From: a virus
Taxonomy: Duplodnaviria; Heunggongvirae; Uroviricota; Caudoviricetes
IMG/VR virus record: IMGVR_UViG_2563366799_000006
Direction: 5' to 3' (one strand)
Length of the DNA: 49,446 nt
In this document: in pieces, positions 2,167 through 45,036 of the stretch
Layout of the letters: every line of letters begins with the position of its first letter
Numbering within the stretch: position 1 is the stretch's first letter
Notes under the pieces: model-generated
Told to the model about the DNA's origin: nothing
Databases searched by the model: none
Seen by the model: only the letters and a program-made list of their open reading frames with translations
Program-made: the position numbers and the translations under genes

Positions 2167-4977
2167 TTATGCCTGAGTACGCAGCGCTTCAAGGCGGCGC
2201 AGGTCGAAGTCGTTCAGTTCGTCGGTGTAATCAGCGGTGATCGGCGCTGGCCATTCGCCAGTGTCAAAGCCGGTAGCGATAGCGCGCATCGCCTTGCGGT
2301 ACTCGAGCATGCCCAGCTCTAGCAGTTCAGCGGATGCCTCGATGATGGCGATCCAGTGGTAGTTCTCGTCTTTGTTGACGAAAATCCAGAAGAACTGGTC
2401 AAGTGCCGCGGTCTCGCAATACATGGCGGCGCTCAGGTGATAGTCACGGTCGATGATTTCCCGGTGCAGTTTGGCGCGCAGACCTTCCTGCTTAATGTTC
2501 CACATGCTGATGGTTTTAAGGTCGGCACCGATGCGTACCCCGTCCAAGTCGATCTCAAGGTCAGGACGCACGCGGACTTCAAGTCCGGTTTCGTCGTCAA
2601 AGCCAAAATAGCTCACCTCAACAGCGCGGCTCGGATGCTGAAGCAGCATCCCGGCGGTTGGGTGCTTTAGCAGGGCTTTCTGAATGGCCAGTGCGGTGCT
2701 CAGCTGCTGGCGGGTGACCAGCACTTTCCCATGCGGATTCTCGCGCCACGCATCCAACAACTCGTCGGCGAATACGGCTTCCGGATTAACAGACTTCACG
2801 GCCTGAATCAGGTCTGATTTGGTACCGGACACTTTCAGTGGTTGGGGCTTCTGCGCCTCCTGTGCAACCAAGTCAGGATTGATGATTGCCAGCTGCTCGA
2901 GCAGCGCGTCACGGCTACCGCTGGTTTTCACCTGCGGCGGCAGGGTGGCGTTGTACTCTTTGATGCAGGCTTTCATCGCCGCTGCGGTCTGCTTCTGGTC
3001 CGCTTCGATCCGCTGGTACTCTTCTGGCAGCGACATGTAGCTCTGGCCAGTTTCCTCGACTGAACCACCCAGTGGCACCTGAGCAGGCAGTGTGGCGTTG
3101 TATTCTTCCAACAACGCTTTGATGTCGTCGGCGCTCAATTGCGCTGGCAGGCTGGCGTTGTACTCATCGATAAACGCGCGGATTGTTGCCGTTGTGGTGA
3201 ACGCGCCTTCCGGGATCATCGGTTCAACGCTGAACTCTTCATCAAGCTGCTCTGGCTGCAACGCAAGGCCGTGCACCAGGTTACCCATGTCCAGTACCGG
3301 AGAACGCTCTTTGGTGATCGTTTTGGCAACGTGGCGCGCATTGAAGTACATCAGCGATACACGCGCATCTTTCACCTGGGTTGAGCTGATACCGTTCGCT
3401 GCGTGATAAACCTCGTTCGGCAACCCTTCATAGCGGCCTGGCTCAAAGTAAGCAGGGTAAACAACAGCCGGTTCGTCAGAATGAGATTCTGGCTCGGTTT
3501 GTGCCGCAACTGGTTCAGTTTGGTTTACAGAATCGCTGTTTTGGCTAACAGAATCCGCATTCTGGTTTACATCGGCCTGCTGGCCGGTATGTGACTCTTC
3601 ACCAGTTTCCAGACTGCTTTCTCCTGACTGCACTTCATCACCAGCCTGTTCTTCATCACTGACAGTTTCTTCCATCTGCACATTGCTGGTGGTTTCCTCA
3701 TTAAGTGGTGAACGGTCATCTGTTTGTGTTTGTTGATCACCCATCAGGCCATCAATGGAGAATACGCCGTTGCCCATGTTGGCGATTTGTGGCTGTTTAG
3801 CAGCTGTTTTCTGCTCTGCAGCGACCTGCTCATTAAACTCATTTTCCCAACTGACGTCCGGCGCATGACCAGCATCAGCCAGCGTTTCTTCTGAGGGGTT
3901 TGAGTGGTCATTTTCGGTTAGATTGGCATTGATATATGCCCGCAACCGCCCAGGAAAGTTAACCAATTCGGATGATGTGCCGCGGATGAGTGCAAAGATG
4001 GCGGCGCGTGAATAGTCCAGGATGCCAGCGGTTTTGCGCAGCGCCTCAGACCATTCGCTGAACGGACTTTCTTTCTTGCTGACAATCTCTTTAGCGCGGC
4101 GGTAGACCCCACCAGGTATGTCGTAGATATTGAAATCCATTGGCAAGGTGGCCAGCGCAATTTCAACATCCAGAGTGTCCAGTGTGTGGACGTAGTCGGT
4201 ATTGCGATCGGTCTTATTTCCACCGCCAGCATTGGTTTTGACGTCAGTGCGTTGAATCTGCACAACACGGTTGCCTTTCTGCCATTCCTTGACCAGCAGG
4301 CCACGGTCGATGTAATCAGTGTTGAACCACACCGTCAGGAACTGGATAACTGTTGCCAGTTCCGGTTTTTTACCGTCGACAGGGAAGGCTTTCTTAACGG
4401 CATTCACGACTTTATGGATATCGTGCTCAATGGCTTTTTTGAATGCTTCCACATTCTCAGCAGCCAGCAGCAGGTTTTGGGCGTACGCGTTATCAGTGTC
4501 CATCTCAAGGCGGACAATCTCGTTTTTCTGACCAGCGTCGACGTGATAGAGATATTCACCATCACCGATGAACTGAGCCAGTACGCGCTGACGGAATGGC
4601 AGGGTGGCAACGACGATCAGGTTCGGCTGCTCTGACTGCTGAGATTCTTCTGCGGTGCTGTCTTCAGTATCCGCGTCGTCGACAGACTCATCTTCAGCCT
4701 GTTGTTTAACATTCCAGGTGCGCTGGTCTTCAGCCAGTTCGTAACGATCGCACCATGTGAAATCAACTTCGCCTTCTTCTGGCAGGTCGTTGTACACCGG
4801 GAAATCAGTGCGAATAGGTTTGGCGTAGTCCTTACCACGGCCGGTTTCGATGCCTGCATCTTCCAGTGCAACATCCAGCTGCAGGTTGGCGCGAGCCTCG
4901 GTTTTCGCAGTGAACCAGACCACTGCATCTTGTTTTCCGGATTTCTGAGTGGCTTTAACCACATTAAAGAATTCCAT
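2167..4977 (-). CDS. recE: RecE-like exonuclease VIII (C-terminal PD-(D/E)xK nuclease domain, acidic linker, internal repeats)
   Basis: 936-aa ORF; C-terminal region has RPD...GADLK, a PD-(D/E)xK-like motif; long D/E/S/Q-rich low-complexity linker; three copies of an EYNA(S/T)LP(A/P)QV peptide motif; immediately upstream of recT. Confidence 0.7.
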   Translation of the reverse strand: MEFFNVVKATQKSGKQDAVVWFTAKTEARANLQLDVALEDAGIETGRGKDYAKPIRTDFPVYNDLPEEGEVDFTWCDRYELAEDQRTWNVKQQAEDESVDDADTEDSTAEESQQSEQPNLIVVATLPFRQRVLAQFIGDGEYLYHVDAGQKNEIVRLEMDTDNAYAQNLLLAAENVEAFKKAIEHDIHKVVNAVKKAFPVDGKKPELATVIQFLTVWFNTDYIDRGLLVKEWQKGNRVVQIQRTDVKTNAGGGNKTDRNTDYVHTLDTLDVEIALATLPMDFNIYDIPGGVYRRAKEIVSKKESPFSEWSEALRKTAGILDYSRAAIFALIRGTSSELVNFPGRLRAYINANLTENDHSNPSEETLADAGHAPDVSWENEFNEQVAAEQKTAAKQPQIANMGNGVFSIDGLMGDQQTQTDDRSPLNEETTSNVQMEETVSDEEQAGDEVQSGESSLETGEESHTGQQADVNQNADSVSQNSDSVNQTEPVAAQTEPESHSDEPAVVYPAYFEPGRYEGLPNEVYHAANGISSTQVKDARVSLMYFNARHVAKTITKERSPVLDMGNLVHGLALQPEQLDEEFSVEPMIPEGAFTTTATIRAFIDEYNASLPAQLSADDIKALLEEYNATLPAQVPLGGSVEETGQSYMSLPEEYQRIEADQKQTAAAMKACIKEYNATLPPQVKTSGSRDALLEQLAIINPDLVAQEAQKPQPLKVSGTKSDLIQAVKSVNPEAVFADELLDAWRENPHGKVLVTRQQLSTALAIQKALLKHPTAGMLLQHPSRAVEVSYFGFDDETGLEVRVRPDLEIDLDGVRIGADLKTISMWNIKQEGLRAKLHREIIDRDYHLSAAMYCETAALDQFFWIFVNKDENYHWIAIIEASAELLELGMLEYRKAMRAIATGFDTGEWPAPITADYTDELNDFDLRRLEALRTQA
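2931..3178. repeat. Three imperfect direct repeats (~22-bp core GGCAGGNTGGCGTTGTAYTC) inside recE
   Basis: Copies at about 2931-2969, 3080-3118 and 3140-3178 on the + strand; they encode the repeated EYNA(S/T)LP(A/P)QV motif. Confidence 0.6.
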
Positions 4978-6340: not shown

Positions 6341-6663
6341 AATATTGTGATTTTGCCGATTATTATTTGATTTATAAAGTGATTTATTTTTGTATGAGAT
6401 GCGTGATATGCTCAAAAAAACACCAGGCGGGGATATTGATATGGGTTTAGGAATGGATATGTCACGTGATGAGCTGCTGGAAGATCGCGCTGCTTTCATG
6501 GCTGGCGAGATTGGCGGTGCAGTTGTCGAGTAGATAATCAACGGTGTGGTGATAAGTCGAGATGCGATAGTAGATAGCTTGGAGACTAAGCGTCGCGCGG
6601 TTGGAAATGTGATTCACAAAGGAGTGTTGTGGGATGTCACTGCTATGGTGAGAAAAGGAATAT

Positions 6664-6686
6664 GAAAACCGGCATAATGCCGGTTT
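6664..6686 (-). terminator. Hairpin terminator at the end of the cI operon
   Basis: Inverted repeat AACCGGCA-taa-TGCCGGTT followed by a T-rich run on the minus strand, overlapping the stop of 6685..7317. Confidence 0.45.
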
Positions 6687-7317
6687 ACTTTGATTTTTCC
6701 TGTTGGTGAAGTACTCGTGGAGTAGTTGGTTCTTGAGGTAATTGGATGATAACAGGTTGCTGCGCTACTGGTTGAACTACGGGCGGATCACTCTTCAAGG
6801 CAGAAACAAGACTAGGTAATGCAACGACAACCGCAATGATAACGCCAAAAATAGCAAGCCTAGTGGAAATACCTGATTGAATACCGCCAATCGCAGTGTT
6901 TATTCCTGTAATTTGCCCTTGTATACCTTCGAATTTGCCATTGATGGCTTTTACATCCCCATCAACGCTATCCATTTTCCCTTCAATTTTAGAAGAAATA
7001 GAGCTAATAGATGAATTGAGCGATGCCAGCTGAACGTTCATATTCTCGCGTGACAAAGCCATTTCAGCTCTAATCGAAGATGCAATGGACTCCATCTCCG
7101 CCTTATTGGCAGCTAGAAGTGCTTGCATTTCTTCACGGCTAACTGATGACATTTCATTTCCCCCATCAGTTTCATTAGCTTCATCTGTTGATTTGATAAA
7201 GTTAGTATACATTTCTTCTTTATCGACGCGTAGTCTGTTTTGAACATTGGGGTACAGGTCATCTTTATCAATGCCAGAACCGCAGTCTGGGACAGCTTTG
7301 AGAGATGGGCCCATCAC
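6685..7317 (-). CDS. Coiled-coil protein with a single C-terminal transmembrane helix (rexB/sieB position, no recognised family)
   Basis: 210-aa ORF; long heptad-like Ser/Ile/Gly-rich region then hydrophobic segment LAIFGVIIAVVVALPSLVSAL; start overlaps the stop of 7314..7700 (ATGA). Confidence 0.6.
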   Translation of the reverse strand: MMGPSLKAVPDCGSGIDKDDLYPNVQNRLRVDKEEMYTNFIKSTDEANETDGGNEMSSVSREEMQALLAANKAEMESIASSIRAEMALSRENMNVQLASLNSSISSISSKIEGKMDSVDGDVKAINGKFEGIQGQITGINTAIGGIQSGISTRLAIFGVIIAVVVALPSLVSALKSDPPVVQPVAQQPVIIQLPQEPTTPRVLHQQEKSK

Positions 7318-7720: not shown

Positions 7721-8404
7721 TTACAATCGGTTATACTTTATTGATTCATGAATCAATGCCTTACCCATTACGTAGAGTTGATCCTGATTACCTTCGTTAA
7801 TGTACCACTTCTCATAAGCTGAGTTATCAGACAAAACTGCCAACCTATCGCCCTGCATCTGCAAGCGCTTCACATGGAAATGTTGTCCGAAAACGAACGC
7901 ATAAACACCGTCGACCTTGAAGTTTCTTACAGAAATATCGAAAAACAATCTGTCACCAGACTGTATAGTTGGACACATGCTGTCGCCATCGACCGTCATT
8001 ACTTTTACGTCTTCCTGAGAACGATTTCCGAAGAGTGAACGAGCGTGTTCGGTTGTGAACTCAATGGCGTGTAGAACCTCAACAAACTCAGAAATCATGA
8101 AAGAACCTGGCCCCGCGCTAAATGTCAGGTCAAGTACGTCAACTCTGAATATGTTTGAGTCTTTTTTTGTCGCGGTAATGGGAGGCGGTAGCTGGCCATC
8201 GTTACGCATCGGTCCGGATCCCGTGGAAAGCCATTCAGGGCGAACATTGAGAACAGAAGCTATCTCGACCGTTTTTCTTGAGCTTGATGCACCATTTAGC
8301 AGCTTGTTAACACTTGACTGTGCCATGCCAACTGCCTTAGCTAGCTTGCCCTGTGTATAACCCGCCTCATTCATTGCGCGATCTAATCGCTCAGAAAAAC
8401 TCAT
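7721..8404 (-). CDS. cI: CI-type prophage repressor (XRE HTH + S24 LexA-like peptidase)
   Basis: 227 aa; N-terminal HTH (QGKLAKAVGMAQSSVNKL); Ala-Gly cleavage site (FSAGPG); Ser in GDSM and Lys in HVKRL; divergent from cro. Confidence 0.9.
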   Translation of the reverse strand: MSFSERLDRAMNEAGYTQGKLAKAVGMAQSSVNKLLNGASSSRKTVEIASVLNVRPEWLSTGSGPMRNDGQLPPPITATKKDSNIFRVDVLDLTFSAGPGSFMISEFVEVLHAIEFTTEHARSLFGNRSQEDVKVMTVDGDSMCPTIQSGDRLFFDISVRNFKVDGVYAFVFGQHFHVKRLQMQGDRLAVLSDNSAYEKWYINEGNQDQLYVMGKALIHESIKYNRL

Positions 8405-33754: not shown

Positions 33755-34059
33755 GGCAGGTCGCCGCAGCATTGTATACGCCGGGACCGACGCTCGCGGA
33801 GCTGAGCGCTTTTGGTTTGACGCCTGAGGACGTGGAGGAAGAGGTGGGGATCCTGCCCTCGGTGTGGAGGTCCTTCACCATCTTCTCTTCCCTGGCGACC
33901 CAGTGGCGAGTCGGCGCGAGCGGGGCGACCGGCCTTGATTACAACGTTCTCCCCTGGATGTTCGAGTTACACGGGGTTGAGGATGCGGCGGCCTGCATGG
34001 CTGACCTTCAAATTATGGAAAGCGAGGCTCTCAAGGTAATGCATAAGGAGACGAAATAA
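33748..34059 (+). CDS. Tail assembly chaperone GT extension (T part, reached by -1 frameshift from G)
   Basis: The -1 frame is open from the slippery heptamer at 33745-33751 to the TAA at 34057-34059; no independent ATG or RBS. Confidence 0.6.
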   Translation, partial: KLRQVAAALYTPGPTLAELSAFGLTPEDVEEEVGILPSVWRSFTIFSSLATQWRVGASGATGLDYNVLPWMFELHGVEDAAACMADLQIMESEALKVMHKETK

Positions 34060-37000
34060 TGACAGACCAGATCGCCTCGATTACTTTGCGGGCCGATGTT
34101 TCTGACCTGAAAACAGCCAGCAACGAACTGGATAAACTCGGCCAGGCGGCGGCCGGTGCTGTAGATAAAGCGGATGATTTAAATAGCGTGTTCCGCGCTG
34201 GGGCTGAATCTGCGAAGCAAGGCAGCGAAGGACTCAAGGAGCAGCAGAACGCGCTCAAAGGGCTGCTGGAGAATATCGACCCGGTTACCAAGGCCTTAAA
34301 CCGCCTGGATGAGCAGCAAGAATCGCTGCGGAAATTCCAGGCCAAAGGTTTCCTGGATACCGATACCTTTCAGGCATACAACAAAATCCTGGATGACACC
34401 CGCCTCAAGCTGACCGACACCGGAGAAGCCGCGGCGCGTGCTCAGGCCGAATTAGCCGCTACCCAGGCGGCAGAGAAGCAGTCCGCAGCGTTAAAGAACC
34501 TTCTTGGATCCATCGACCCGACTATCCGCGCGTTCAATTCGTTGGATGAACAGCACGCACAGCTGGTGGAACATTTCGAAGCTGGGCGCATTAACGGTGC
34601 TCAGTTCGAGCACTTCAACACAATCCTTAACCAGACGCGTGAGCGCCTCTCTGGTGTCGCTGACGTACTACCAGAGGCGCTATCCCGGCAGGAAGCTGCT
34701 GCCCGGCGCGCTGGAATCTCCGTTGGTCAGTACAGCGCAGCAATGCGCACGCTTCCGGCGCAATTCACCGATATCGCCACGCAGCTGGCTGGCGGTCAGT
34801 CGCCGTTCCTGATTCTGCTGCAACAGGGCGGGCAGATTAAAGACCAGTTCGGCTCGGTTCAGGGGGCGCTGTCCGGCGTCGGCGAATACATCCGCAGCAT
34901 GGCTGGGATGATTAACCCTACCACAATCGCACTTGGTGGGCTGATTGGCACGATCGGCCTGCTGGCTGCCGCAGCGTATAACTCCTCGGAGCAATTTGAG
35001 CAGGTGGCACGCTCTGTCATCATGATGGGTGGGGCTGGCTTCTCCTCAATGCAGCAGCTCAACCAGGCCGCTGAGGAAGTGGCTGGCAAGACGAATACAT
35101 CGATTAGCTCCACCGTCGATACGCTGGTTACGTTGAACGATACTGGCAAATATACCGCAAGCCAGATGAAGCAGGTCGCAACGACCATCACCCTCATGGG
35201 TAAGGCCGGAAATGATACCAAAGCGGCAATAAGCGACTTCGGAAAGATTGTCAGCGATCCGGTTAAAGGGCTTGCCAGCCTCAATGAACAATATGGTTTC
35301 GTTGATGAAGCCATGATCAAGCACATTATCCAGCTACGTAAGCAGAAGGGTGAGCAGGCGGCTGTTACCGAAGCTATTGAGCTGTTTGCAGGCGTCATGG
35401 CAAAGCGCGCAGAGGAGACCAACAAAGCGACCGATAATATCGGTCAAACGTGGGAAAACCTTAAAAAGAGCGCTTCTGACACCTTTGGCGATATAGGTAT
35501 TACCGTGCGCGCATGGGGAAACCAGATCATTGATATTTTCGAACTGGTTAAATCCTCGATCAAAGACTTGTTCCTCAATATCACCTCTCTGGACGCCAAG
35601 TTCACCAGCACCATCGCTGGCTGGGCAGACAAAATCCCGGGTGGCGGTGCGCTGGCTAATTTCCTCGGCATGGACGTTGAGGCAATGAAAAAGGCTGGAG
35701 CGGAGGCGGACAAAGAGATTGAGGCGAACAAAAAACGCTATAACGAGCTTTGGAAGCGCGTCACTGCGCCTAACGCACAGGCAAACTATGAGGCTGAAGC
35801 GCGAGGGTCTAACGTAAAAGGTGATGGAGGAACAAGTCGAGAATCAAGAGACGCAGTCTCGAAGCTTGCACAAGACTCAGCCAAAAAGACCAAAGAGGCA
35901 AAAGCCACGCTGGATGCTGGCGATCGCACTCTTGAGAACTACCGCGCCCAGGCCAGAACGTTAACTGAAACACTCGAAACGTTGCGCAAGACTGGGGAGA
36001 CTCAGGTCAGATATACCGAGTTCAGCAAACAGCAATCCCATTTTGCCGAGCTGGACGAGGCTGCTAAGACCCGCGCGCTGACCGCACAGGAGAAATCTCT
36101 TCTATCGAACCGAGAGGCCATCCTCAACGCCGCCAAAGTTGTGGATCAGAAAAATAAGGAAGTCGAGGCCCAGCAGAAGATTAACGGCCTGGCGCAGCAG
36201 GCAAATAAGTATGTTACGCAGATGACTGAAAAGTCTGAGGCATTGCGTAGCGGGGCTGGGTTAAGTAGTCGCATGGCCCAGCGAATGACCGAAGAGGCGC
36301 AGCTTCGGCAGGGCTGGCTAAATGGCGGTGGTAATCTAGAGGATGCTGGCTACGAGAAAGAGCTGGCAGCTCTTCGTAACTACTACGCCGAAGAGGATAA
36401 GCTACGGGGTGACTGGAAAGCAGGGGCAGTTAGTGGCTGGAATGAATATCTTGAGGCCGCCACGAATACCTATGACGCCGTGAAGAACGTCGCCAGCTCC
36501 ACGCTGACCGGCTTGAGCGACATGCTGACTGAGCTGATGATCACTGGCAAAGCATCAGTTAAAGAATTCGGTAAATCCATGCTCAAGATGATCCTGGATG
36601 TTACGAACCGCCTCATGGTTGCCTACGCAGTGCAGGCCGCAATGGGATGGGTAAACGGAGGGGCAGGAGGTGGCAACACACCCGGTGGAGCATACGCGAA
36701 CGCTGCTGCAGGCGTAACGTTCAACGCTAAAGGCGGAGTCTATGAATCGCCGGGCCTAAGCAAGTATGTGAATGGCGTCTACGATTCTCCTCAGTACTTC
36801 ACGTTCCAGGGGGCATCTAAGTTTGCGAAAGGGGGGGTCTTTGGAGAGGCAGGGCCGGAAGCTATTATGCCGTTAGCTAAAGATTCAGCAGGGCGGTTGG
36901 GTGTACGCGCCCAAGGAGGTGGAAGTATTGCTCCTGTAATTAATACCGTCATTAATGTTGAGGCTAATGGTAATGTATCAACCAGCACATCGTCGGATGG

Positions 37001-37112
37001 TGATGCAATGGCGCGTGCTTTAGCCAAGCAGATCAATGATCAGGCAAAAATGATAGTGCTCAATGAGCTTAAGCCTTCTGGCGCTATCTACAACTACATT
37101 AACAAGCGATAA
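34059..37112 (+). CDS. Tail tape measure protein
   Basis: 1017 aa; helical/coiled-coil N-terminal two-thirds, Gly-rich C-terminal region; start overlaps the T stop (TAATG). Confidence 0.9.
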   Translation: MTDQIASITLRADVSDLKTASNELDKLGQAAAGAVDKADDLNSVFRAGAESAKQGSEGLKEQQNALKGLLENIDPVTKALNRLDEQQESLRKFQAKGFLDTDTFQAYNKILDDTRLKLTDTGEAAARAQAELAATQAAEKQSAALKNLLGSIDPTIRAFNSLDEQHAQLVEHFEAGRINGAQFEHFNTILNQTRERLSGVADVLPEALSRQEAAARRAGISVGQYSAAMRTLPAQFTDIATQLAGGQSPFLILLQQGGQIKDQFGSVQGALSGVGEYIRSMAGMINPTTIALGGLIGTIGLLAAAAYNSSEQFEQVARSVIMMGGAGFSSMQQLNQAAEEVAGKTNTSISSTVDTLVTLNDTGKYTASQMKQVATTITLMGKAGNDTKAAISDFGKIVSDPVKGLASLNEQYGFVDEAMIKHIIQLRKQKGEQAAVTEAIELFAGVMAKRAEETNKATDNIGQTWENLKKSASDTFGDIGITVRAWGNQIIDIFELVKSSIKDLFLNITSLDAKFTSTIAGWADKIPGGGALANFLGMDVEAMKKAGAEADKEIEANKKRYNELWKRVTAPNAQANYEAEARGSNVKGDGGTSRESRDAVSKLAQDSAKKTKEAKATLDAGDRTLENYRAQARTLTETLETLRKTGETQVRYTEFSKQQSHFAELDEAAKTRALTAQEKSLLSNREAILNAAKVVDQKNKEVEAQQKINGLAQQANKYVTQMTEKSEALRSGAGLSSRMAQRMTEEAQLRQGWLNGGGNLEDAGYEKELAALRNYYAEEDKLRGDWKAGAVSGWNEYLEAATNTYDAVKNVASSTLTGLSDMLTELMITGKASVKEFGKSMLKMILDVTNRLMVAYAVQAAMGWVNGGAGGGNTPGGAYANAAAGVTFNAKGGVYESPGLSKYVNGVYDSPQYFTFQGASKFAKGGVFGEAGPEAIMPLAKDSAGRLGVRAQGGGSIAPVINTVINVEANGNVSTSTSSDGDAMARALAKQINDQAKMIVLNELKPSGAIYNYINKR

Positions 37113-37125
37113 TTGAGAGGTTTTA

Positions 37126-37338
37126 ATGGACTTAAAAGTTGACGGCATCAATGTTTATGATGATGAGGAAGGAAAGATTGTTTCAGTAACCGTGCATGTA
37201 ATGAGGGATGAATATCGAAGTCATGCAACGACATACGTTGAGCTCCCGTATTCTGATGCGCTGACAATCCATGAAATTCACACGCAGGCGCTCAATGCCG
37301 CCAAAGAGAAACTTAAGCTGATCGCAAGCAGCATCTGA
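37126..37338 (+). CDS. Hypothetical small protein
   Basis: 70 aa; GAGAGG RBS. Confidence 0.45.
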   Translation: MDLKVDGINVYDDEEGKIVSVTVHVMRDEYRSHATTYVELPYSDALTIHEIHTQALNAAKEKLKLIASSI

Positions 37339-37393
37339 TCGTTACATTCTGACATCCCCTGGTTAATATGTAAAAAACCATATTGTTCAGGGG

Positions 37394-37822
37394 ATGATAA
37401 TGAAATTACTCTTCATTAGCGTTGTTGCGTTGTGTTTGGCCGGTTGTGCTACTGAAGCCGTTTTACCAAGCCAGGCGAAACAAGCACCCAAAGAACGATT
37501 GCTCAAGTTCCAGTCGCCAGGTGTAGGGGAACAGGCGAAGCTAATTGTGGTGCGCGATAAAGGATTTCTTGGAAGCGGTTGTTTCGTCGGCGTGTACCTA
37601 AACCAAGAGAAGGCAGCTATTTTGGATCCAGGTGAGAAGGCCGAATTTTACCTCAAACCGGGAGAATGGAATGTTGCTTTAATGGGGGAAGGAAAGATGT
37701 GCATCGCTGACAAGATACCTGCTGGAAGAGACTTTGTGCTCACTGCGAACACTACAAAAGCCGTCCGTTTATTTGCAGATCCGAGCGGAAACACTGACGT
37801 CAAAACACTGCCGAACCAATAG
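37394..37822 (+). CDS. Lipoprotein (cargo gene between tape measure and M)
   Basis: 142 aa; signal peptide with lipobox LAGC; terminator downstream. Confidence 0.65.
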   Translation: MIMKLLFISVVALCLAGCATEAVLPSQAKQAPKERLLKFQSPGVGEQAKLIVVRDKGFLGSGCFVGVYLNQEKAAILDPGEKAEFYLKPGEWNVALMGEGKMCIADKIPAGRDFVLTANTTKAVRLFADPSGNTDVKTLPNQ

Positions 37823-37842
37823 CCCCCAATACCTAATAACCA

Positions 37843-37870
37843 GCCTCGTATCCGCGGGGCTTTTTGTTGT
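37843..37870 (+). terminator. Intrinsic terminator (AGCCTCG...CGGGGCT family)
   Basis: AGCCTCG-tatccg-CGGGGCT followed by TTTTTGTTGTTG. Confidence 0.5.
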
Positions 37871-38283
37871 TGCAGGTGGGCGGGGTGGTTAAAAAGTGAG
37901 CACCACATTCAAGGGGGCCGAAATATTACAGCAATCTTTGTTGTCGTGCATTCCAACCAAGTCATGTATTTTGTGCAAAAAGTGCTATTTATGGCCTTCT
38001 TGAACTCTTCAACCGGATCATAGGCCCAGCCTATCTCCTGAGAACGTGACAATAGTTTACTATTACCTGAGGGGTAACTTCTGCGAAAGTGTGGCTAACT
38101 TGCAAAGTGGCCGCGATAAAATTCGTCGAACATGCATCTATCTTCAGACATAGGCCCATTGCTCAAATATGACGAATGGTATTAAATTGTCCTCAACCAC
38201 TTGAAGTGGTCATTAATTCTTTGGATGTGTTTACATCCTACAATTTGAGAAAGCACTGCCAAACGTGCATGAGGGTGATAATC

Positions 38284-38463
38284 ATGGGTCACGCATTAAA
38301 AAAGGCAGATCGCTTGTACATTCCGCCTCGTGACAAATCCACGGTGGCGAAACCTCGTGCAGCGATCAGCGAAGCATGTTCACACACTGGTCAAGTTAAA
38401 AATGCCTTTGAGTTTGGGTTTGCTCGTTATGAGAAGGCGATGGAAGAACTTTCAAAGGTCTGA
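38284..38463 (+). CDS. Putative antitoxin partner of the Doc-family toxin (family not recognised)
   Basis: ATG at 38284 with GAGGG RBS (ORF track extends to 38176); 59 aa; 10 bp upstream of the Doc gene; perfect palindrome ACCACTT-G-AAGTGGT at 38206-38220 upstream. Confidence 0.45.
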   Translation: MGHALKKADRLYIPPRDKSTVAKPRAAISEACSHTGQVKNAFEFGFARYEKAMEELSKV

Positions 38464-38473
38464 GTAGAAACGG

Positions 38474-38971
38474 ATGACGATAGAGTATGTTGAAGGAGTC
38501 AATTATCTTTCCATTGACGATATCGTTTACATCAATAGGTCTCTGATCGAGACTCAGACGCCAAATGAGCCAATAGGCGTACTGAATCCGAACAACCTCA
38601 GTTCTTCACAGTCCAGACCAAGTACGATTCGATATTATGAGCAGACAGACGATATGTTTCGCCTGTCTGCTGTTCTTATTGAAAGCCTGATCCAGAATCA
38701 TCCATTCGCAAATGCAAACAAACGCACCGCTATGATGGCTGGATACGTATTCCTGTTGCTGAATGGATATGAGCTTACAGCACCCAGTGATGAGGTCGTA
38801 ACCATCGCAGAGGGTTTGGCTCGTAAGGATTACTCAGTGGAAGACCTGGAAAATTGGTTATGCCACTGGTCCCGAGAGTACGATTCCAGAACGTTATGTG
38901 CAACAGGCGGAAATTCGCTTCAGGCTCTCGTGGCGACTTCACACTACATCCGAATCATATCGAATAACTGA
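38474..38971 (+). CDS. Doc (death-on-curing)/Fic-family toxin
   Basis: 165 aa; motif HPFANANKRTA (compare P1 Doc H.F.DANKRTA). Confidence 0.75.
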   Translation: MTIEYVEGVNYLSIDDIVYINRSLIETQTPNEPIGVLNPNNLSSSQSRPSTIRYYEQTDDMFRLSAVLIESLIQNHPFANANKRTAMMAGYVFLLLNGYELTAPSDEVVTIAEGLARKDYSVEDLENWLCHWSREYDSRTLCATGGNSLQALVATSHYIRIISNN

Positions 38972-38972
38972 A

Positions 38973-38993
38973 TCCGCTAAGAGGCGGTTTTTT
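38973..38993 (+). terminator. Intrinsic terminator after the Doc gene
   Basis: Short stem CCGCT/GGCGG followed by seven T. Confidence 0.5.
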
Positions 38994-39015
38994 TGCCGAC
39001 CAATACTGAATTATA

Positions 39016-39038
39016 TAACCCGCTTCGGCGGGTTTTTT
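39016..39038 (+). terminator. Intrinsic terminator (second of a tandem pair)
   Basis: AACCCGC-ttcg-GCGGGTT followed by TTTTTT. Confidence 0.65.
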
Positions 39039-39050
39039 TATGGAGCAAAT

Positions 39051-39401
39051 ATGGCCGTTGAAACATACAACTGGCGATCTCAGCTCGGGGCTGGCGCGAT
39101 TGAATATAGTCAAACGGTGCGTGCTGCGCAGTTTGGCGATGGCTACGAACAGGTGGCCGAGAACGGCATCAACTCCACGGCGATCCAGGTGCCAATGAAA
39201 CACGTTGGCAGTGAGTCTGAGGTAAACGCAGTGCGCGACTTCCTCCTGGCTCATACCGTTAAAGCTTTTATCATCACGCCGCCCGGCGAAGCGAAGGGGC
39301 TTTATCGGGTAGTCGCCGATTCCGTACGGAAAAATCAGATCAGCAGCAAGTTTGCTGAGCTGACGTTCACCATCAAACGGGCTTACGGAGTGTATGCATA
39401 A
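39051..39401 (+). CDS. M: Minor tail protein M
   Basis: ATG at 39051 with GGAG RBS (ORF track extends to 38898); FGDGY motif shared with lambda M; gene order M-L-K-I-J. Confidence 0.7.
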   Translation: MAVETYNWRSQLGAGAIEYSQTVRAAQFGDGYEQVAENGINSTAIQVPMKHVGSESEVNAVRDFLLAHTVKAFIITPPGEAKGLYRVVADSVRKNQISSKFAELTFTIKRAYGVYA

Positions 39402-40171
39402 TGGCATTAGTCGATCAGGCGGCGATGCTGGCACCGGGTGGCAGAGTTCGCCTGGTTGAAGTTGACGCCTCAGAGTTCAGTGGCGGTATTCACCGTTTCC
39501 ACTACGCACCTTTCCCCCATACACCGGAAGAGATCGACGCTGCCAATGGTGATGAAGAAAAGCTCGGACCAAAGCCAATCGTATTCGGTGGCAATACCTA
39601 CGATTTTTGGCCGTTTCAGGTAGCAGGCCTGGAGCTTTCAACAGACCAGGCCGCAGAGCCGACACTCAGCGTTTCCAACCTCGACGGTCATATCACGGCG
39701 CTATGCCTGCAATTTAAAGACATGGTTAATGCCAAAGTGAGCATTATCGACACCTATTCGGTTTACCTCGATGCCGTGAATTACCCTGGTGGGGTGAACC
39801 CGACCGCAGACCCGTCGATGTTCACGCTTCAGACCTTCTGGCTTGACACGAAAACCTCCGAAGACGACGAAGTGGTTTCATGGTCACTCAGTAGCCCCGC
39901 AGACTTGCAGGGGCTTGTTATCCCAACCAGACAAATCACCTCGCTCTGTGAATGGGCGCTACGCGGGCAGTACCGGAGCGGCGATGGATGCACCTATAAC
40001 GGTACGGCATATTTCGACGCGAAGGGGAACCAGGTTTCAGATCCTGCCCTTGATGTATGTGGTGGATGCTTCAGTGACTGCCGTAAACGATTTGGCGCCG
40101 GCCTGGCAGATCCTAACGCGGCAATTCTCGACTTTGGCGGCTTTCCGGCAACCGTTCTCTTCACCCGATAA
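39401..40171 (+). CDS. L: Minor tail protein L
   Basis: 256 aa; motifs PTLSVSNL, YLDAVN, C-terminal Cys cluster, DFGGF, as in lambda L. Confidence 0.85.
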   Translation: MALVDQAAMLAPGGRVRLVEVDASEFSGGIHRFHYAPFPHTPEEIDAANGDEEKLGPKPIVFGGNTYDFWPFQVAGLELSTDQAAEPTLSVSNLDGHITALCLQFKDMVNAKVSIIDTYSVYLDAVNYPGGVNPTADPSMFTLQTFWLDTKTSEDDEVVSWSLSSPADLQGLVIPTRQITSLCEWALRGQYRSGDGCTYNGTAYFDAKGNQVSDPALDVCGGCFSDCRKRFGAGLADPNAAILDFGGFPATVLFTR

Positions 40172-40183
40172 CCGGACATAGCA

Positions 40184-40915
40184 ATGAATAAAACCATATT
40201 GGCAGCTATCCGTGCTCATGCGCTGGAGGAATCCCCGCGCGAGAGCTGCGGATTCGTTATTCAGTCTGGCCGTCGCCAGCGCTATATTCCTGTACCAAAC
40301 ACTCACGAAAATCCAACAGAGCATTTCCGCATCGATGGCGAGCATTGGGCGAACGCCGAAGATATCGGGACGATTGTGCGCGTCATCCATTCCCATCCTG
40401 GCGATGGAGCAAGGCCGATTCCATCCGATCTGGACCGCCAGCAATGCAACAACTCCGGCGTGGTCTGGGGTATTTACGCGCCGGATAGCGACGAATACGC
40501 TGAGATAATGCCGGAGGCGGTACCCCTTATCGGGCGTCCGTTTATTCTGGGCTCAAATGACTGCTGGGGGCTGGTAATGGATTGGCATGCCACCCAAGGC
40601 GTGAAGCTGAACGATTTTCGCGTCGATTACCCGTGGTGGGAAAGCCAGTACCCGGACAATCTCTATTTCGAAAACTGGGAGCGGGAAGGGTTTGTCGAAT
40701 GCGATCCGGCACCAGGCTGTATGGTCATCATGCAGGTTGAATCCAGTAAGTGGAACCACGCGGGGATCATTACCGAGGAAGGTGAACTGCTTCACCATCT
40801 GTATGGGCAGCCATCCTGCATCACGCCGTATGCGCGTGGTTATTTCAAAGACAGGACGATGATCTGCGTCCGTCACAAGGACCTGCCACAGGAGATAAAG
40901 CCATGGCGCGTTTAA
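40184..40915 (+). CDS. K: Tail assembly protein K (JAMM/MPN + NlpC/P60)
   Basis: 243 aa; HSHPGDGARPIPSDLD JAMM motif; Cys/His peptidase motifs. Confidence 0.85.
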   Translation: MNKTILAAIRAHALEESPRESCGFVIQSGRRQRYIPVPNTHENPTEHFRIDGEHWANAEDIGTIVRVIHSHPGDGARPIPSDLDRQQCNNSGVVWGIYAPDSDEYAEIMPEAVPLIGRPFILGSNDCWGLVMDWHATQGVKLNDFRVDYPWWESQYPDNLYFENWEREGFVECDPAPGCMVIMQVESSKWNHAGIITEEGELLHHLYGQPSCITPYARGYFKDRTMICVRHKDLPQEIKPWRV

Positions 40916-41502
40916 CCACTATTCGTCTGTATGGCGCACTGGGCGCCCGGTTCGGGCGCGTGCATAAACTGGCAGTGCAGACATCTGCCGAAGCGGTCAA
41001 AGCCCTGTGTATCAACTTCGACGGACTGGAAGACTATCTAATGAATGCAAAAAAAAATGGCATGACCTTCGCGGTGTTTCGCGGTAAGCGCAACATAGGC
41101 GTGCAGGACTTCCAGGAGCTGGCAGGCGATAGCGATATTCGCATAGCGCCGGTTATGGAGGGGGCGAAGAAGGCGGGTATGTTCCAGACCATCTTGGGGG
41201 CAGTGATGGTGGTCGCCGGTATTATCGTCGGCGTGGCGACCGGCTGGACCGGTGTAGGTCTCACCTTTGGTGCCGGACTTATCATGTCGGGCGCGTCAAT
41301 GATGGCTGGTGGAATTTACCAGATGCTTTCGCCCCAGCCCAAAGGACTACAGGGGCGAGACGATCCTGACAATAAACCATCATATGCCTTCGGTGGCTCG
41401 GTGAATACCCTTGCGATGGGTAACCCGGTCGCGCTTCTTTATGGTGAGCGCGAGATTGGCGGCGCCATCATCAGTGCCGGCATAGTCGCAGAAGACATCT
41501 AA
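40903..41502 (+). CDS. I: Tail assembly protein I
   Basis: 199 aa; overlaps K; hydrophobic Gly-rich central segment as in lambda I. Confidence 0.8.
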   Translation: MARLTTIRLYGALGARFGRVHKLAVQTSAEAVKALCINFDGLEDYLMNAKKNGMTFAVFRGKRNIGVQDFQELAGDSDIRIAPVMEGAKKAGMFQTILGAVMVVAGIIVGVATGWTGVGLTFGAGLIMSGASMMAGGIYQMLSPQPKGLQGRDDPDNKPSYAFGGSVNTLAMGNPVALLYGEREIGGAIISAGIVAEDI

Positions 41503-41521
41503 AACTCCTTTCTGAATATCA

Positions 41522-41546
41522 AGCACCCAATTGGGTGCTTTTTTTA
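41522..41546 (+). terminator. Hairpin plus T-run between I and J
   Basis: AGCACCC-aatt-GGGTGCT followed by TTTTTTT. Confidence 0.55.
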
Positions 41547-41556
41547 TGGATGTAAT

Positions 41557-44500
41557 ATGGAAGCGATCACTGGTGCAAAGGGTGGCAGCCAGAAGCAGCA
41601 CACACCTGTAGAACAGCCCGATTCGGCTCAGTCAATGGCGCGCTGCCGCATGCTGCTGGCGCTCGGGGAGGGGGAGTTTGCTGGTGGCCTGGATGCGACC
41701 CGGATATTCCTGGACGGTACGCCGTTGGGAAACCCCGACGGAACGATGAATTTTGAAAATGTGTCATGGGATTTCCGGCCTGGCACACAGACCCAGACAC
41801 CAATACCGGGATTCCCTGCAGTCGAGAATGAAACTACGGTTGGGGTATCGCTGACAAAGGCCACACCATGGACCCGCGCACTGAGTAACACCCAGATTGA
41901 CGCGGTGCTGGTTCGTATTGGCATCCCTGGGTTACAGCAGCAGGAAAACGATGGGGATATTGTCGGCACTACGGTTCAGTACCATATTGATCTGGCGGTG
42001 GACGGTGGCGCTTACTCGACAGTCATGACGAAAACCGTCACAGAGAAGCTCAGCTCGCTCTATGAACTAACCCACCGTATTAATCTTCCCAAAGCCAGCA
42101 CTGGCTGGCAAATTCGAGTGGTGCGTGACACCGATGACAGCACCAGCCAGATGCTGCAGAACAAAACGCAGGTGCAAGCGATTACTGAAGTGATCGATGC
42201 TCGCCTGCGATATCCACACACAGCGCTGCTGTACGTGTCCTTTAACGCAAAGTCATTCAACAACATCCCTAAGATTTCCTGCATGCCGAAGGGGCGCATC
42301 ATCCGAATCCCTTCGAACTATGATCCAATAGCGCGGACTTATAGCGGAACATGGGACGGGACGTTTAAATGGGGCTGGACGAATAACCCGGCGTGGATTT
42401 GGTTCGATGTTCTGACTGAGCCGCGCTTCGGCCTTGGGCGCCGCGTGACGCCAGAAATGCTCGATAAGTGGGAGCTCTATCGCATCGCCCAGCGCTGCGA
42501 CCAGAAGGTACCCGACGGGAAAGGCGGAAGCGGTACCGAGCCACGCTTCATGTTTGACGTTTACATCCAGTCCCAGGCTGATGCCTGGCAGGTGATTAAA
42601 GATATTGCCGCGGGCTTCAACGGAATGACTTTCTGGGGCAACAACATGTTCAATGTTGTCTCTGACATGCCGGCGGACACTACGAAGTTGCAGATCCTCA
42701 CTCGCGCATCAGTGGTGGGTAAGCCGGTGTACTCGAGTGGCAGTGAGAAAAACCGATTCTCCAGCGCGCTGATTAACTTCAGCGATCCGGATAACCACTA
42801 CCAGGACCGCACCACGGCAGTGATGTTTCCGGAACTGGTAAGGCAGTTCAAGTTTAAGCAGACACAAATCACTGCGATCGGTTGTACGCGTGAGAGCGAG
42901 GCGCAGCGGCGTGGCGGGTGGGCGGTGTATTCCAACTCCCTTGACCGCATTATCACGCTTCAGACTGGACTTGATGGCTTTGTATTCGTGCCGGGCACCG
43001 TATTTGCGTTTGCAGATGAACGCCTGTCAGGGCGCGTTTACGGCGGGCGTATCACCGGGTATAACGCTGGTCTTAAGGCCGTGACCATTGACCGGGGCAC
43101 CAGTGCGGTGGCGGGCGATACGCTGATGATTCGCACCCAGGGCGGTACCGTTGAAAGCCGGGTGATACAGGCCGTAAATGGCACGCAGCTGATCCTGTCC
43201 ACGCCGTTCACGGCGGCGCCATTACCTAATGCCGTATTCGTCATTGATGCTGGTCAGCTGCGCCTGCAGTATTTCCGGGTAACGAACCTAAAATTTGATG
43301 ATGAGGAAAACACCTTCACCATTACCGGTGCGGAGTATAACGCGTCGAAATACGACGCCGTTGATAACAATGCTCGCCTCGATACTCCTCCGATAAGCCT
43401 GATTCCGACCGGGCTAGTTAACCAGCCGACCAACATCGTGGTATCGAGCTATGATGCGGTTCGCCAGGGGCAACGCGTGGCCACGCTAACCGCCTCGTGG
43501 GATGCGCCAATTGATAAAGACGGCAAACTGCAGTCGGACGTAATAGCGTACCGGGCACAGTGGAAGCGCGGAAATAACGAATGGGTAAACGTGCCTGAAA
43601 CCGGGTTACGAAATATCGAAGTGCCTGGCATTTTCGAGGGCGATTACCTTGTGCGCGTCCGTGCGATTAACTCTGGGGGAGCGTCCAGCCTTTGGGCCAC
43701 GTCTGCGTTGACCCATCTTACCGGCCGCACCGGTGAAGTGCCCAAACCTGTCGGACTAACAGCAACAGAGGATGTTGTATTTGGGATCAACATTACATGG
43801 GGTTTCCCCGCAGATACCGCCGACACCCTGAGCACGGAACTGCAATACAGCGCTTCAGTCGATGGGGCAAATCCAATGCTTTTGGCGTCGGTGCCGTATC
43901 CTCAGAAACTCTATCAGCAGATGGGGCTGAAGGCAGGGCAGGAATTCTGGTACCGGGCACGGCTGGTTGACCGCATCGGGAATCAGAGCGACTGGACAGA
44001 CTGGGTGCGCGGGCAGGCCAGCATCGATGTTTCCGATATCACCGATGCAATCCTGGAGGACATGAAAGGCTCCGATACGTTCAAAGACCTGATCGAGAAC
44101 GCGGTGGACAGCAATGAAAAAATTGCTGGCATGGCTGACGAAATTAAAAACCATGCCGACGAACTCGAGCAGCAGGCGAAAGACATCCTGGAGAACGCTG
44201 ACGGGCTGGCTCAGGCCGAAGTGAAGATCGACGAGATTTCTGTGTCGATGGACGGCATGACGGGAGGAGTGAAGAACTCGGCAATCGCGATTATTCAGAA
44301 TGGGCTGGCGCAGGTGGTAAGCCGTCGCTCGCAGACCGCCACGAACGCCGGGAACAGTGCCAGTATAGACAGAGTGGATACTACGATTGCCGATACCAGC
44401 CAGGCGGTCGCACGCGCGCTGGTCACACTGGATGCAGAAGCTGGTGGCAATATCTCTAACTCAACGGACCTGACAGAAACTCTTGCTGATTTCACCCAGG

Positions 44501-45036
44501 CTTCGGCAACAAAAATCAACACTCTGACTGTTAAATCAGGCGAAAACAGTGCAGCGATAAACGTCAACGCACAGGCTATAGCAGATGTAAACGGTAACCT
44601 CAGCGCGATGTATAACATCAAGGTGGGGGTGTCCAGTAACGGGCAGTATTACGCTGCCGGGATGGGTATTGGGGTTCAAAATACACCCTCCGGCATGCAG
44701 TCACAGGTAATCTTCCTGGCAGACCGTTTCGCCGTGACTACTATGGTCGGCGGGACTGTAACACTGCCGTTCGTTATCCAGAATGGCCAGGCCATTATCA
44801 GGGATACAGTCATTGGCGACGGGACCATAAGCAATGCAAAAATTGGCAATTACATCCAGTCGAACAATTATGTTGCCGGCTCTGTTGGCTGGAAACTGGA
44901 TAAGTCCGGGACGTTTGAGAACTACGGTTCGACAGCTGGGGAGGGAGCCATGAAGCAGACCAACCAGACAATCAGCGTCAAGGATGGCAACAACGTTCTG
45001 AGAGTGCAGGTTGGCCGATTAACGGGGGTGTTCTGA
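41557..45036 (+). CDS. J: Host specificity protein J (central tail fibre/tip)
   Basis: 1159 aa; follows I; size and position. Confidence 0.9.
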   Translation: MEAITGAKGGSQKQHTPVEQPDSAQSMARCRMLLALGEGEFAGGLDATRIFLDGTPLGNPDGTMNFENVSWDFRPGTQTQTPIPGFPAVENETTVGVSLTKATPWTRALSNTQIDAVLVRIGIPGLQQQENDGDIVGTTVQYHIDLAVDGGAYSTVMTKTVTEKLSSLYELTHRINLPKASTGWQIRVVRDTDDSTSQMLQNKTQVQAITEVIDARLRYPHTALLYVSFNAKSFNNIPKISCMPKGRIIRIPSNYDPIARTYSGTWDGTFKWGWTNNPAWIWFDVLTEPRFGLGRRVTPEMLDKWELYRIAQRCDQKVPDGKGGSGTEPRFMFDVYIQSQADAWQVIKDIAAGFNGMTFWGNNMFNVVSDMPADTTKLQILTRASVVGKPVYSSGSEKNRFSSALINFSDPDNHYQDRTTAVMFPELVRQFKFKQTQITAIGCTRESEAQRRGGWAVYSNSLDRIITLQTGLDGFVFVPGTVFAFADERLSGRVYGGRITGYNAGLKAVTIDRGTSAVAGDTLMIRTQGGTVESRVIQAVNGTQLILSTPFTAAPLPNAVFVIDAGQLRLQYFRVTNLKFDDEENTFTITGAEYNASKYDAVDNNARLDTPPISLIPTGLVNQPTNIVVSSYDAVRQGQRVATLTASWDAPIDKDGKLQSDVIAYRAQWKRGNNEWVNVPETGLRNIEVPGIFEGDYLVRVRAINSGGASSLWATSALTHLTGRTGEVPKPVGLTATEDVVFGINITWGFPADTADTLSTELQYSASVDGANPMLLASVPYPQKLYQQMGLKAGQEFWYRARLVDRIGNQSDWTDWVRGQASIDVSDITDAILEDMKGSDTFKDLIENAVDSNEKIAGMADEIKNHADELEQQAKDILENADGLAQAEVKIDEISVSMDGMTGGVKNSAIAIIQNGLAQVVSRRSQTATNAGNSASIDRVDTTIADTSQAVARALVTLDAEAGGNISNSTDLTETLADFTQASATKINTLTVKSGENSAAINVNAQAIADVNGNLSAMYNIKVGVSSNGQYYAAGMGIGVQNTPSGMQSQVIFLADRFAVTTMVGGTVTLPFVIQNGQAIIRDTVIGDGTISNAKIGNYIQSNNYVAGSVGWKLDKSGTFENYGSTAGEGAMKQTNQTISVKDGNNVLRVQVGRLTGVF

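Follow-up and report, generated by a model that had tools for sequence, protein, structure and literature searches.

The type II toxin-antitoxin module Phd-Doc of phage P1 and Salmonella is a phage-borne bicistron in which the small antitoxin gene comes first and the second gene encodes Doc, a Fic-fold kinase of EF-Tu. To our knowledge, the antitoxins known for Doc all join a DNA-binding or other globular domain to a C-terminal neutralising helix. Here, we describe a gene pair of the same layout in the 49,446-nucleotide (nt) DNA stretch of the IMG/VR virus record IMGVR_UViG_2563366799_000006, which is referred to below as the window. The pair consists of a 59-amino-acid (aa) partner gene (38284..38463) and a 165-aa Doc-family toxin gene (38474..38971), both on the + strand, lying in a cargo island of a lambdoid tail module. 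The toxin belongs to TIGR01550 and carries an HxFx(D/N)(A/G)NKR motif, as does the toxin of Phd-Doc. In the reading that we prefer, and to which we assign a probability of about 0.7, the pair is a co-functional Doc toxin and a dedicated small protein antitoxin, carried as a moron.

Several features set the pair apart from Phd-Doc. No similarity between the partner and Phd/YefM could be detected, and no DNA-binding domain is predicted in it; Doc, at 165 aa, is ~10 residues longer at the N-terminus and ends in a C-terminal tail that varies; no operator is conserved; and the pair occupies a cargo slot in a tail module, not a plasmid prophage. A small gene upstream of a Fic-fold enzyme is, as we understand it, also the arrangement of the class I Fic systems of the VbhA-VbhT and YhfG-Fic type. 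Class I Fic antitoxins carry (S/T)xxxE(G/N) and their enzymes carry the AMPylation motif HxFx(D/E)GNGRxxR, whereas here the inhibitory motif is absent from both the partner and its family consensus, and the enzyme has the Doc-type NKR. The partner string nearest to the inhibitory motif is T35-GQV-K-N, in which Lys replaces Glu and position 35 is not conserved.

The part of Phd that neutralises Doc is short: its C-terminal helical peptide is sufficient on its own, and Salmonella Doc is bound at 73 pM, and inhibited, by a C-terminal Phd peptide of 22 residues (PMC9207808). The partner has a conserved predicted helix of similar length. In the Phd-Doc system of E. faecalis (9VZC), whose Doc is the closest solved one by sequence and has N rather than D in the motif, as here, the antitoxin binds Doc via a bent C-terminal helix and reads a single 10-bp palindrome with an AbrB/MazE-like N-terminal DNA-binding domain (PMC13034048), to which the partner has nothing comparable. 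The closest conceptual precedent for a minimal partner is PanA(Phd-C)-Doc of Corynebacterium doosanense (NetFlax/Panacea, PMC10440598), in which a short exchangeable helix neutralises Doc independently of the rest of the antitoxin. This linear neutraliser, 'Phd-C', also neutralises a Doc toxin when fused to SUMO, and single-domain, neutraliser-only antitoxins exist (PMC10440598). In PanA the helix is carried by a Panacea domain, whereas here it follows a conserved, non-globular N-terminus of 33 residues, and the precedent is a conceptual one. As for the location, lambdoid tail morons with their own promoter and terminator between tail genes include HK97 gp15, as cited in PMC11364771, and the YafO-family pair gp17-gp18 of HK639. 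The latter, preceded by the same upstream DNA, is another toxin pair and occupies precisely the position that the Doc pair has in the window.

The Doc gene and its 59-residue partner

The downstream gene matches the TIGR01550 profile DOC_P1 with 141.6 bits against a curated cut-off of 38.65 (E = 1.3e-41, profile positions 2-121 of 122), phrog_577 'Doc-like toxin' (4.4e-49) and Pfam Fic (PF02661; 48.2 bits, cut-off 24, E 2e-12). Its nearest solved relative is E. faecalis Doc (9VZC; E = 6e-15, residues 8-119), followed by P1 Doc (3K33; E = 4e-07). By these matches it is a genuine Doc-family (Fic-fold) gene and an ordinary member of a known family, as a preliminary description of the window had proposed from the signature HPFANANKRTA (residues 76-86, nt 38699-38731). 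Within this signature, HPFANANKR (residues 76-84) conforms to the Doc-type active-site motif, in which Lys replaces the second Gly of the AMPylation motif. Residues H76, F78, N80, N82, K83 and R84 are invariant in 33 homologues with 63-93% identity, which argues for an active enzyme under selection. His 76 is the counterpart of His 66 of P1 Doc, which we take to be the catalytic residue.

The same description had credited the protein with an N-terminal extension of about 60 aa relative to P1 Doc, which the alignments contradict: the DOC_P1 profile matches residues 12-130, and residues 28-116 of P1 Doc align to residues 38-127, an offset of ~10 residues. The extra length lies instead in a C-terminal tail that varies in length and sequence. 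Conservation extends to W128-L-x-x-W-S-R-x-Y-D-x-R-x-L-C142, ending at the invariant Cys142, and is followed by a lineage-specific tail of ~8-25 residues, represented in the window by residues 143-165 (38900-38968, + strand).

The partner gene (MGHALKKADRLYIPPRDKSTVAKPRAAISEACSHTGQVKNAFEFGFARYEKAMEELSKV) begins with an ATG downstream of the Shine-Dalgarno (SD) sequence GAGGGTG (38271-38277) and stops 10 nt before the Doc start. Classification of its product with hidden Markov models, suggested earlier as a check, returned a full-length match to phrog_2208 ('unknown function', 1.4e-37) and no named family in Pfam or NCBIfam (E ≤ 1); PADLOC and the PDB, the latter searched by sequence and by profile, gave no match either. 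The earlier remark that the protein does not resemble Phd/YefM (PF02604) agrees with these searches and with an hhalign comparison to P1 Phd, which gave a probability of 0.4%. Among 58 distinct DNA versions of the gene, entropy at the three codon positions was 0.47/0.28/1.15, and differences from the window's version numbered 496/324/1297 at positions 1/2/3. An SD-like tetramer preceded the partner gene in all 40 distinct upstream regions. This pattern marks the partner as a real, translated gene, and the untranslated frame that the preliminary description had named as an objection is not what is seen. Both the partner and Doc are under strong purifying selection across genera. Public records name the partner 'hypothetical protein', and modules of this kind are consequently counted as orphan toxins.

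An AlphaFold2 model of the partner, built from a 19-sequence alignment (predicted local distance difference test score, pLDDT, 69.5), shows a single helix (residues 34-57), residues 1-33 being without regular structure, so the protein is predicted to lack a folded DNA-binding domain. The C-terminal half is the most conserved part, with R48, Y49, E50, K51, A52, M53 and L56 invariant, and both halves are conserved in the family consensus M..A..K...L.IP.RDK..VA.P.P..G...H..QV.NAF...F.RY.KA.E.LSKV. When 1.84 billion representative proteins were searched exhaustively with a profile, 34 clusters of this family were found, with proteins of 38-95 aa that mostly match over their full length, a few of them bearing a short N-terminal extension. 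As these proteins are too short for an additional domain, the partner is never fused to a DNA-binding domain in this set. We also observed that the N-terminal motif L-x-I-P-x-R-D-K and the extreme C-terminus L-(S/A)-K-V are kept, the latter to the last residue.

The two genes are strictly linked. The first contexts viewed from the partner side had a Fic/Doc gene (159-164 aa) 4-13 nt downstream in eight out of eight cases, and in the full collection, gathered from 12 genomes, 80 IMG/VR contigs and other sources, an open reading frame (ORF) with the Doc motif directly followed the partner in 106 of the 106 loci with enough downstream DNA. Two relatives at 43-45% identity likewise pair partner and Doc. 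Searched from the other side, Doc yielded more than 210 clusters of ~160-aa homologues, and the ~160-aa Doc follows a partner-family gene of 58-59 aa in all four sets of loci examined (E. coli, Serratia and Xenorhabdus). The gap between the genes is 10 nt here and 3-22 nt in the other loci, and the divergence of the two proteins rises in step. Adjacent and co-oriented, small gene first, separated by a short gap and inherited together, they have the layout of a type II module.

The pair occurs in a variety of surroundings: before the tape-measure gene in Providencia siphoviruses, in myovirus baseplate modules (Rosenbergiella, Xenorhabdus), beside KilA-N/BstA genes in Izhakiella, beside an AlpA gene in Serratia, and next to the integrase in the Pseudomonas phages Sirocco and LPPA56. 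Lambdoid prophages of E. coli (L011-L014, about 2380-3490) have the cassette in the nin region, immediately behind a hok (type I toxin) gene and its terminator. Since it is found in so many different positions, the pair is, judging by its distribution, a mobile two-gene cassette. Of 5,426 complete E. coli genomes, 125 carry the version found in this species, in every case on the chromosome, and O121:H19 strains are among these carriers; megablast of the window's own cassette against complete E. coli genomes gave no match, the E. coli version being a diverged one. Salmonella, Providencia, Serratia, Yersinia pestis and Pseudomonas phages are further carriers of the Doc subfamily with the 59-residue partner.

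Two individual loci deserve separate mention. In Salmonella phage SW-37 (L001, about 6450-7140), tblastn matches the partner in split form, with residues 1-39 in one piece and two places in the record, and the DNA alignment of this region exceeds the query by 4 nt, which points to either a frameshifted partner gene or an error in sequencing. In a distant relative (L163, 529-1920), the partner and a 145-aa Doc are followed by a second Fic-domain gene of 242 aa.

Predicted promoter and leader repeat

A promoter for the cassette is predicted at 38159..38187 on the + strand, with the -35 box TTGCTC (38159-64) and the extended -10 box TGgTATTAA (38177-85); TTAAAT (38182-87), at a spacing of 17 nt, is an alternative -10 box. 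The assignment draws on conservation: the extended -10 sequence TGGTATTA(A/G) recurs in at least 10 otherwise unrelated leader lineages, and ATTGCT(C/T)AAA together with the -10 box is also kept upstream of other cargo types.

The preliminary description had noted a perfect inverted repeat, ACCACTT-G-AAGTGGT (ACCACTTGAAGTGGT), upstream of the pair and regarded it as the operator of an autoregulated toxin-antitoxin operon. The repeat is present on the + strand and perfect, lying at 38196..38210, i.e., 10 nt upstream of the position 38206-38220 given for it, and it spans ~4-18 nt after the predicted transcription start. The window contains 17 perfect repeats of this class (arms of at least 7, loop 0-1) against 7.2 in dinucleotide shuffles, and ~0.06 would be expected in a 420-nt intergenic stretch; taken alone, the palindrome is only suggestive. 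Comparison of 16 near-identical leaders gave a clearer picture of the unit. The arms ACCACT (38196-201) and AGTGGT (38205-210) are invariant in 15 of them, L056 having one C-A mismatch, while the centre (38202-204) occurs in six variants (TGA, AAG, CCA, AAA, TAA and CGA). Because the centre varies freely, the seventh pair that makes a perfect 7-1-7 repeat in the window is incidental, and the unit consists of 6-bp arms with a free 3-nt centre. Variation among these leaders clusters at 38202-38219, in the repeat centre and the 9-nt linker between the conserved arms and a second hairpin.

Among slightly more distant relatives, the repeat is replaced. Locus L057, whose partner is 98.3% identical (one residue differs), has ATAGC-acaa-GCTAT in the same place, and ATAGC-n4-GCTAT is found there also in L023 and L062. 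Loci L021 and L060 (partners 95% identical each) have ATAGCC-n16-GGCTAT, L022 (93%) has AATGGTC-n16-GACCATT, and L061 (92%) has no repeat in that place; the L021 and L022 partners are identical to the window's in residues 1-30. Palindromes of unrelated sequence thus precede partners that are almost the same, which lends no support to an operator specific to the partner but fits selection for a stem at the beginning of the transcript; the absence of a predicted DNA-binding domain in the partner (AlphaFold2) and of any fusion to one (profile search) also goes against the earlier proposal. Co-variation of the Doc C-terminal tail with the palindrome was considered as well and is unsupported, as L023 combines a similar tail with a different repeat.

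Two more hairpins follow in the leader on the + strand. The second, GGATGT-gttt-ACATCC (38223..38238), is conserved in 20 of 20 aligned leaders, and its one-sided changes preserve G-U pairs on this strand; the third is a small stem, GCAC-n8-GTGC (38253-68), directly before the SD sequence. In most lineages, the fold of the 48 nt that follow the predicted start is more stable than that of shuffled sequences (mean z -2.1). For the first hairpin, the arms shift register across lineages and the alignment is ambiguous, so that replacement is seen rather than compensatory change. We give about even odds to the palindrome working as a stem-loop in the RNA and not as a dyad in the DNA, and a DNA-level function of the dyad for some factor is possible.

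Proposed mechanism and rival explanations

In the reading that we prefer, the cassette would be a mobile two-gene, type II-like toxin-antitoxin moron in an HK639-like tail module. By homology with P1 and Salmonella Doc, the toxin would be a kinase that phosphorylates EF-Tu and halts translation. The partner would be its dedicated neutraliser, co-transcribed with it and, given the 10-nt gap, probably translationally coupled; we infer that it binds Doc mainly via the invariant amphipathic C-terminal helix (~34-57), in the manner of the Phd C-terminal helix, and would thus be a minimal, neutraliser-only antitoxin without a DNA-binding domain. In the lysogen, transcription would start at the cassette's own promoter (38159-38187), itself part of a conserved upstream platform, with terminators insulating the unit on both sides. 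The repeat at 38196-38210 would most simply form a stem-loop at the very 5' end of the mRNA, where it opens a series of three small hairpins in the leader and may influence stability or translation. Once synthesis of the labile partner stopped, free Doc would arrest translation; shut-off by a superinfecting phage or loss of the prophage could be the trigger, and the outcome would be abortive-infection defence or prophage addiction, a role suggested by the general behaviour of such modules and by the other cargos of the slot.

A number of observations weigh against parts of this reading. A consensus scan for sigma-70 promoters on the + strand upstream of the pair called none. The AlphaFold2 model of Doc alone (33 homologues) is unusable, with a mean pLDDT of 47.8. 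Residues F42, F46, Y49, M53 and L56 of the partner can be overlaid on the Phd hot spots F56, M60, H63, L67 and L70, but this is the spacing of any amphipathic helix, and hhalign found no homology. The conserved partner N-terminus (RLxIPxRDK) could be a DNA-reading strand in a dimer, missed by the monomer prediction. As for an RNA role of the leader, the minus strand of its first 48 nt folds as well as or better than the + strand, and the whole leader has no greater stability than shuffles (z -0.15). Perfect repeats with arms of at least 7 are present in 15 of 29 leader lineages against 3.2 expected, many of them with 0-2-nt centres and some in or upstream of the promoter, such as TAATGTAA-n6-TTACATTA between the -35 and -10 boxes of the Providencia-type leader. 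The 4-mers ACCA/TGGT and GGTA/TACC are over-represented in the leaders (z 8.4 and 5.4), an excess that the shared -10 box explains in part. The enriched short-loop dyads and the 4-mer excess fit DNA dyads better than RNA hairpins.

These dyads, with their loosely shared TGGT/ACCA and GGTA/TACC elements, also speak for the idea that the palindrome at 38196-38210 is an operator after all, to which the partner or a partner-Doc complex binds as a dimer, blocking RNA polymerase at the start. As the promoter is shared between cargo types, an operator specific to one cargo would have to lie right behind the -10 box, as the dyad does; conserved arms around a free centre would be two contacted half-sites and a non-contacted spacer; and known Doc modules autoregulate through palindromes (PMC13034048). 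We nevertheless regard such an operator as unlikely, since a 98.3% identical partner (L057) is accompanied by an unrelated repeat, partners with identical residues 1-30 have differing repeats with 16-nt against 3-nt spacing, and L061 has none. Further, no DNA-binding fold is predicted in the partner, no relative is fused to one, and variation in the Doc tail fails to track the repeat as well (L023).

A different possibility leaves the toxin in place and changes the role of the small protein, which might be an obligatory adaptor, activator, sensor, substrate or pseudo-substrate of a Doc that is restrained by other means. Nothing in the neutralising peptides of the Phd type corresponds to the conserved N-terminal half of the partner (RLxIPxRDKS-VA-P), the conservation of L(S/A)KV right up to the final residue suggests a recognition tag, and neither protein matches a PADLOC model above noise (Doc giving only noise-level matches, the partner none). 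The partner segment K18-S19-T20-V21-A22 also loosely resembles GRT382VGA, which we take to be the EF-Tu site phosphorylated by Doc, but partner position 20 is not conserved as Ser or Thr. In addition, a leading small gene, gaps of 3-22 nt, strict 1:1 linkage and a small, helical partner protein make up the canonical type II layout, and an active, unchecked Doc kinase would kill the lysogen; we consider this possibility improbable. It is more improbable still, indeed barely credible, that the pair is inert baggage, with Doc inactive or not expressed from the prophage, read only in the late tail transcript, and with a palindrome that arose by chance. The negative promoter scan, the marginal unexpectedness of the palindrome on its own and the possibly disrupted partner frame of SW-37 would fit that view. 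It conflicts with the invariant catalytic motif and the strong purifying selection on both proteins across genera, with the conserved extended -10 and -35 boxes upstream of the pair, with the flanking terminators that make it an independent transcription unit, and with the conservation of the repeat arms across 16 leader variants.

The cargo slot and its setting

The promoter adjoins a conserved non-coding platform at 37862..38158 with near-invariant islands: TACAGCAAT (37927-35), TTTTGTGCAAAAAGTGCTATTT (37969-90), the dyads ATAGGC-cca-GCCTAT (38020-34) and TTACC-n5-GGTAA (38063-77), AACTTGCAAAGTGGCC (38097-112) and TCGTCGAACATG (38123-34). It is common to HK639, SW-37 and prophages of Citrobacter and Kluyvera. 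The window is homologous to HK639 from 37838 to 38185, as far as the -10 box, and in the place of the Doc pair HK639 (L002, 4572-5590) has a 190-aa hypothetical protein and a YafO-family toxin. A 20-mer of the platform occurs in 51 IMG/VR contigs, with at least five different two-gene cargos downstream: the Doc pair (22 contigs), the HK639-type pair (~7), proteins of ~165-196 aa and 121-150 aa (~13), a 72-aa and 257-aa pair (4) and a 113-aa and 241-aa pair (1). Judged by eye, N-termini of the ~165-196-aa/121-150-aa cargos resemble DUF4065/Panacea antitoxins. In the loci followed past the cargo, a tail gene comes next, M in most and an I-like gene in two.

The obvious idea is that this DNA serves as the shared regulatory or recombination platform of a cargo hotspot. 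Other functions were considered for it. A small Cys-rich protein on the + strand (37896-38003, '...ILQQS...FLCKKCY') and a 42-aa minus-strand protein were both discarded, as stops or frameshifts interrupt them in many homologues, and codon periodicity is absent from the platform (0.634/0.628/0.638). The idea of a structured RNA was dropped as well: RNAalifold gave a weak consensus (-6.7 and -1.5 kcal/mol) with a single tiny covarying stem, and Rfam, searched with 37000-39400, gave sub-threshold matches on the terminators only and nothing in the leader or platform.

We found no description of a shared 330-bp platform, of interchangeable two-gene cargos or of the HK639 slot in the searchable literature, and nothing specific on this partner-Doc pair. 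Out of the ordinary here are an unnamed, domain-less partner family linked to Doc, the want of a convincing operator, and a cargo slot with a shared platform. A bolder proposal, to which we give slightly less than even odds, is that the partner founds a new family of minimal Doc antitoxins and that the slot is a new cargo-exchange site with its own platform. In that case a promoter platform independent of the cargo, together with the leader hairpins, would control partner expression in place of conditional autoregulation, and the 330-bp platform with its promoter would drive interchangeable toxin or defence cargos (Doc, YafO-like, Panacea-like and others). If true, a widespread Doc subfamily paired only with a 59-residue protein would be a natural case of a neutraliser-only antitoxin, and it might escape the textbook rule that ties operator binding to the toxin:antitoxin ratio. 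The shared platform and swappable two-gene cargos point to an accessory, probably defence, hotspot in the lambdoid tail module, which would be useful for finding new cargo systems.

By sequence comparison, the 49,446-nt window is an HK639-like lambdoid phage or prophage: Escherichia phage HK639 matches 68% of its right half (25000-49446) at 85% identity, and the tail genes are arranged as in lambda, with the tape-measure gene (34059-37112) followed by M (39051-39401), L (39401-40171), K (40184-40915), I (40903-41502) and J (41557-45036). Lambda lacks the 1.9 kb that separate the tape-measure gene from M here. The insert opens with a 70-aa ORF (37126-37338; phrog_2891, unknown function) and a lipoprotein gene (37394-37822; phrog_890) that has its own terminator, an 8-pair stem with 5 GC pairs followed by TTTTTGTTGTT (37842..37861, + strand). 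This hairpin with its T-run is the upstream limit of the cassette's transcription unit, and ~420 nt free of genes separate it from the Doc pair. In the HK639 annotation, the lipoprotein gene is present and the 70-aa ORF is not annotated.

At the other end, two tandem intrinsic-terminator-like hairpins with T-runs (38974..39041, + strand; stems 38974-38987 and 39017-39034) close the cassette 10 nt upstream of M, so the cargo island between the tape-measure gene and M, described earlier as ending in tandem terminators, stands as proposed. Because terminators flank the cassette on both sides, it forms an independent transcription unit. The locus has the features by which a phage moron is recognised: an insert amid conserved genes, promoter-like -35 and extended -10 boxes (predicted), terminators at 37842-61, 38974-87 and 39017-34, and a content that differs between relatives, with other cargo in HK639 and in 29 IMG/VR contigs.

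Elsewhere in the window, the longest inverted repeats are at 6666-6686, 7740-7757 and 41521-41540, with arms of 10, 9 and 10 bp. The former two belong to the early/regulatory region and the third falls in the gap between genes I and J of the tail; all three could serve as operators or terminators.

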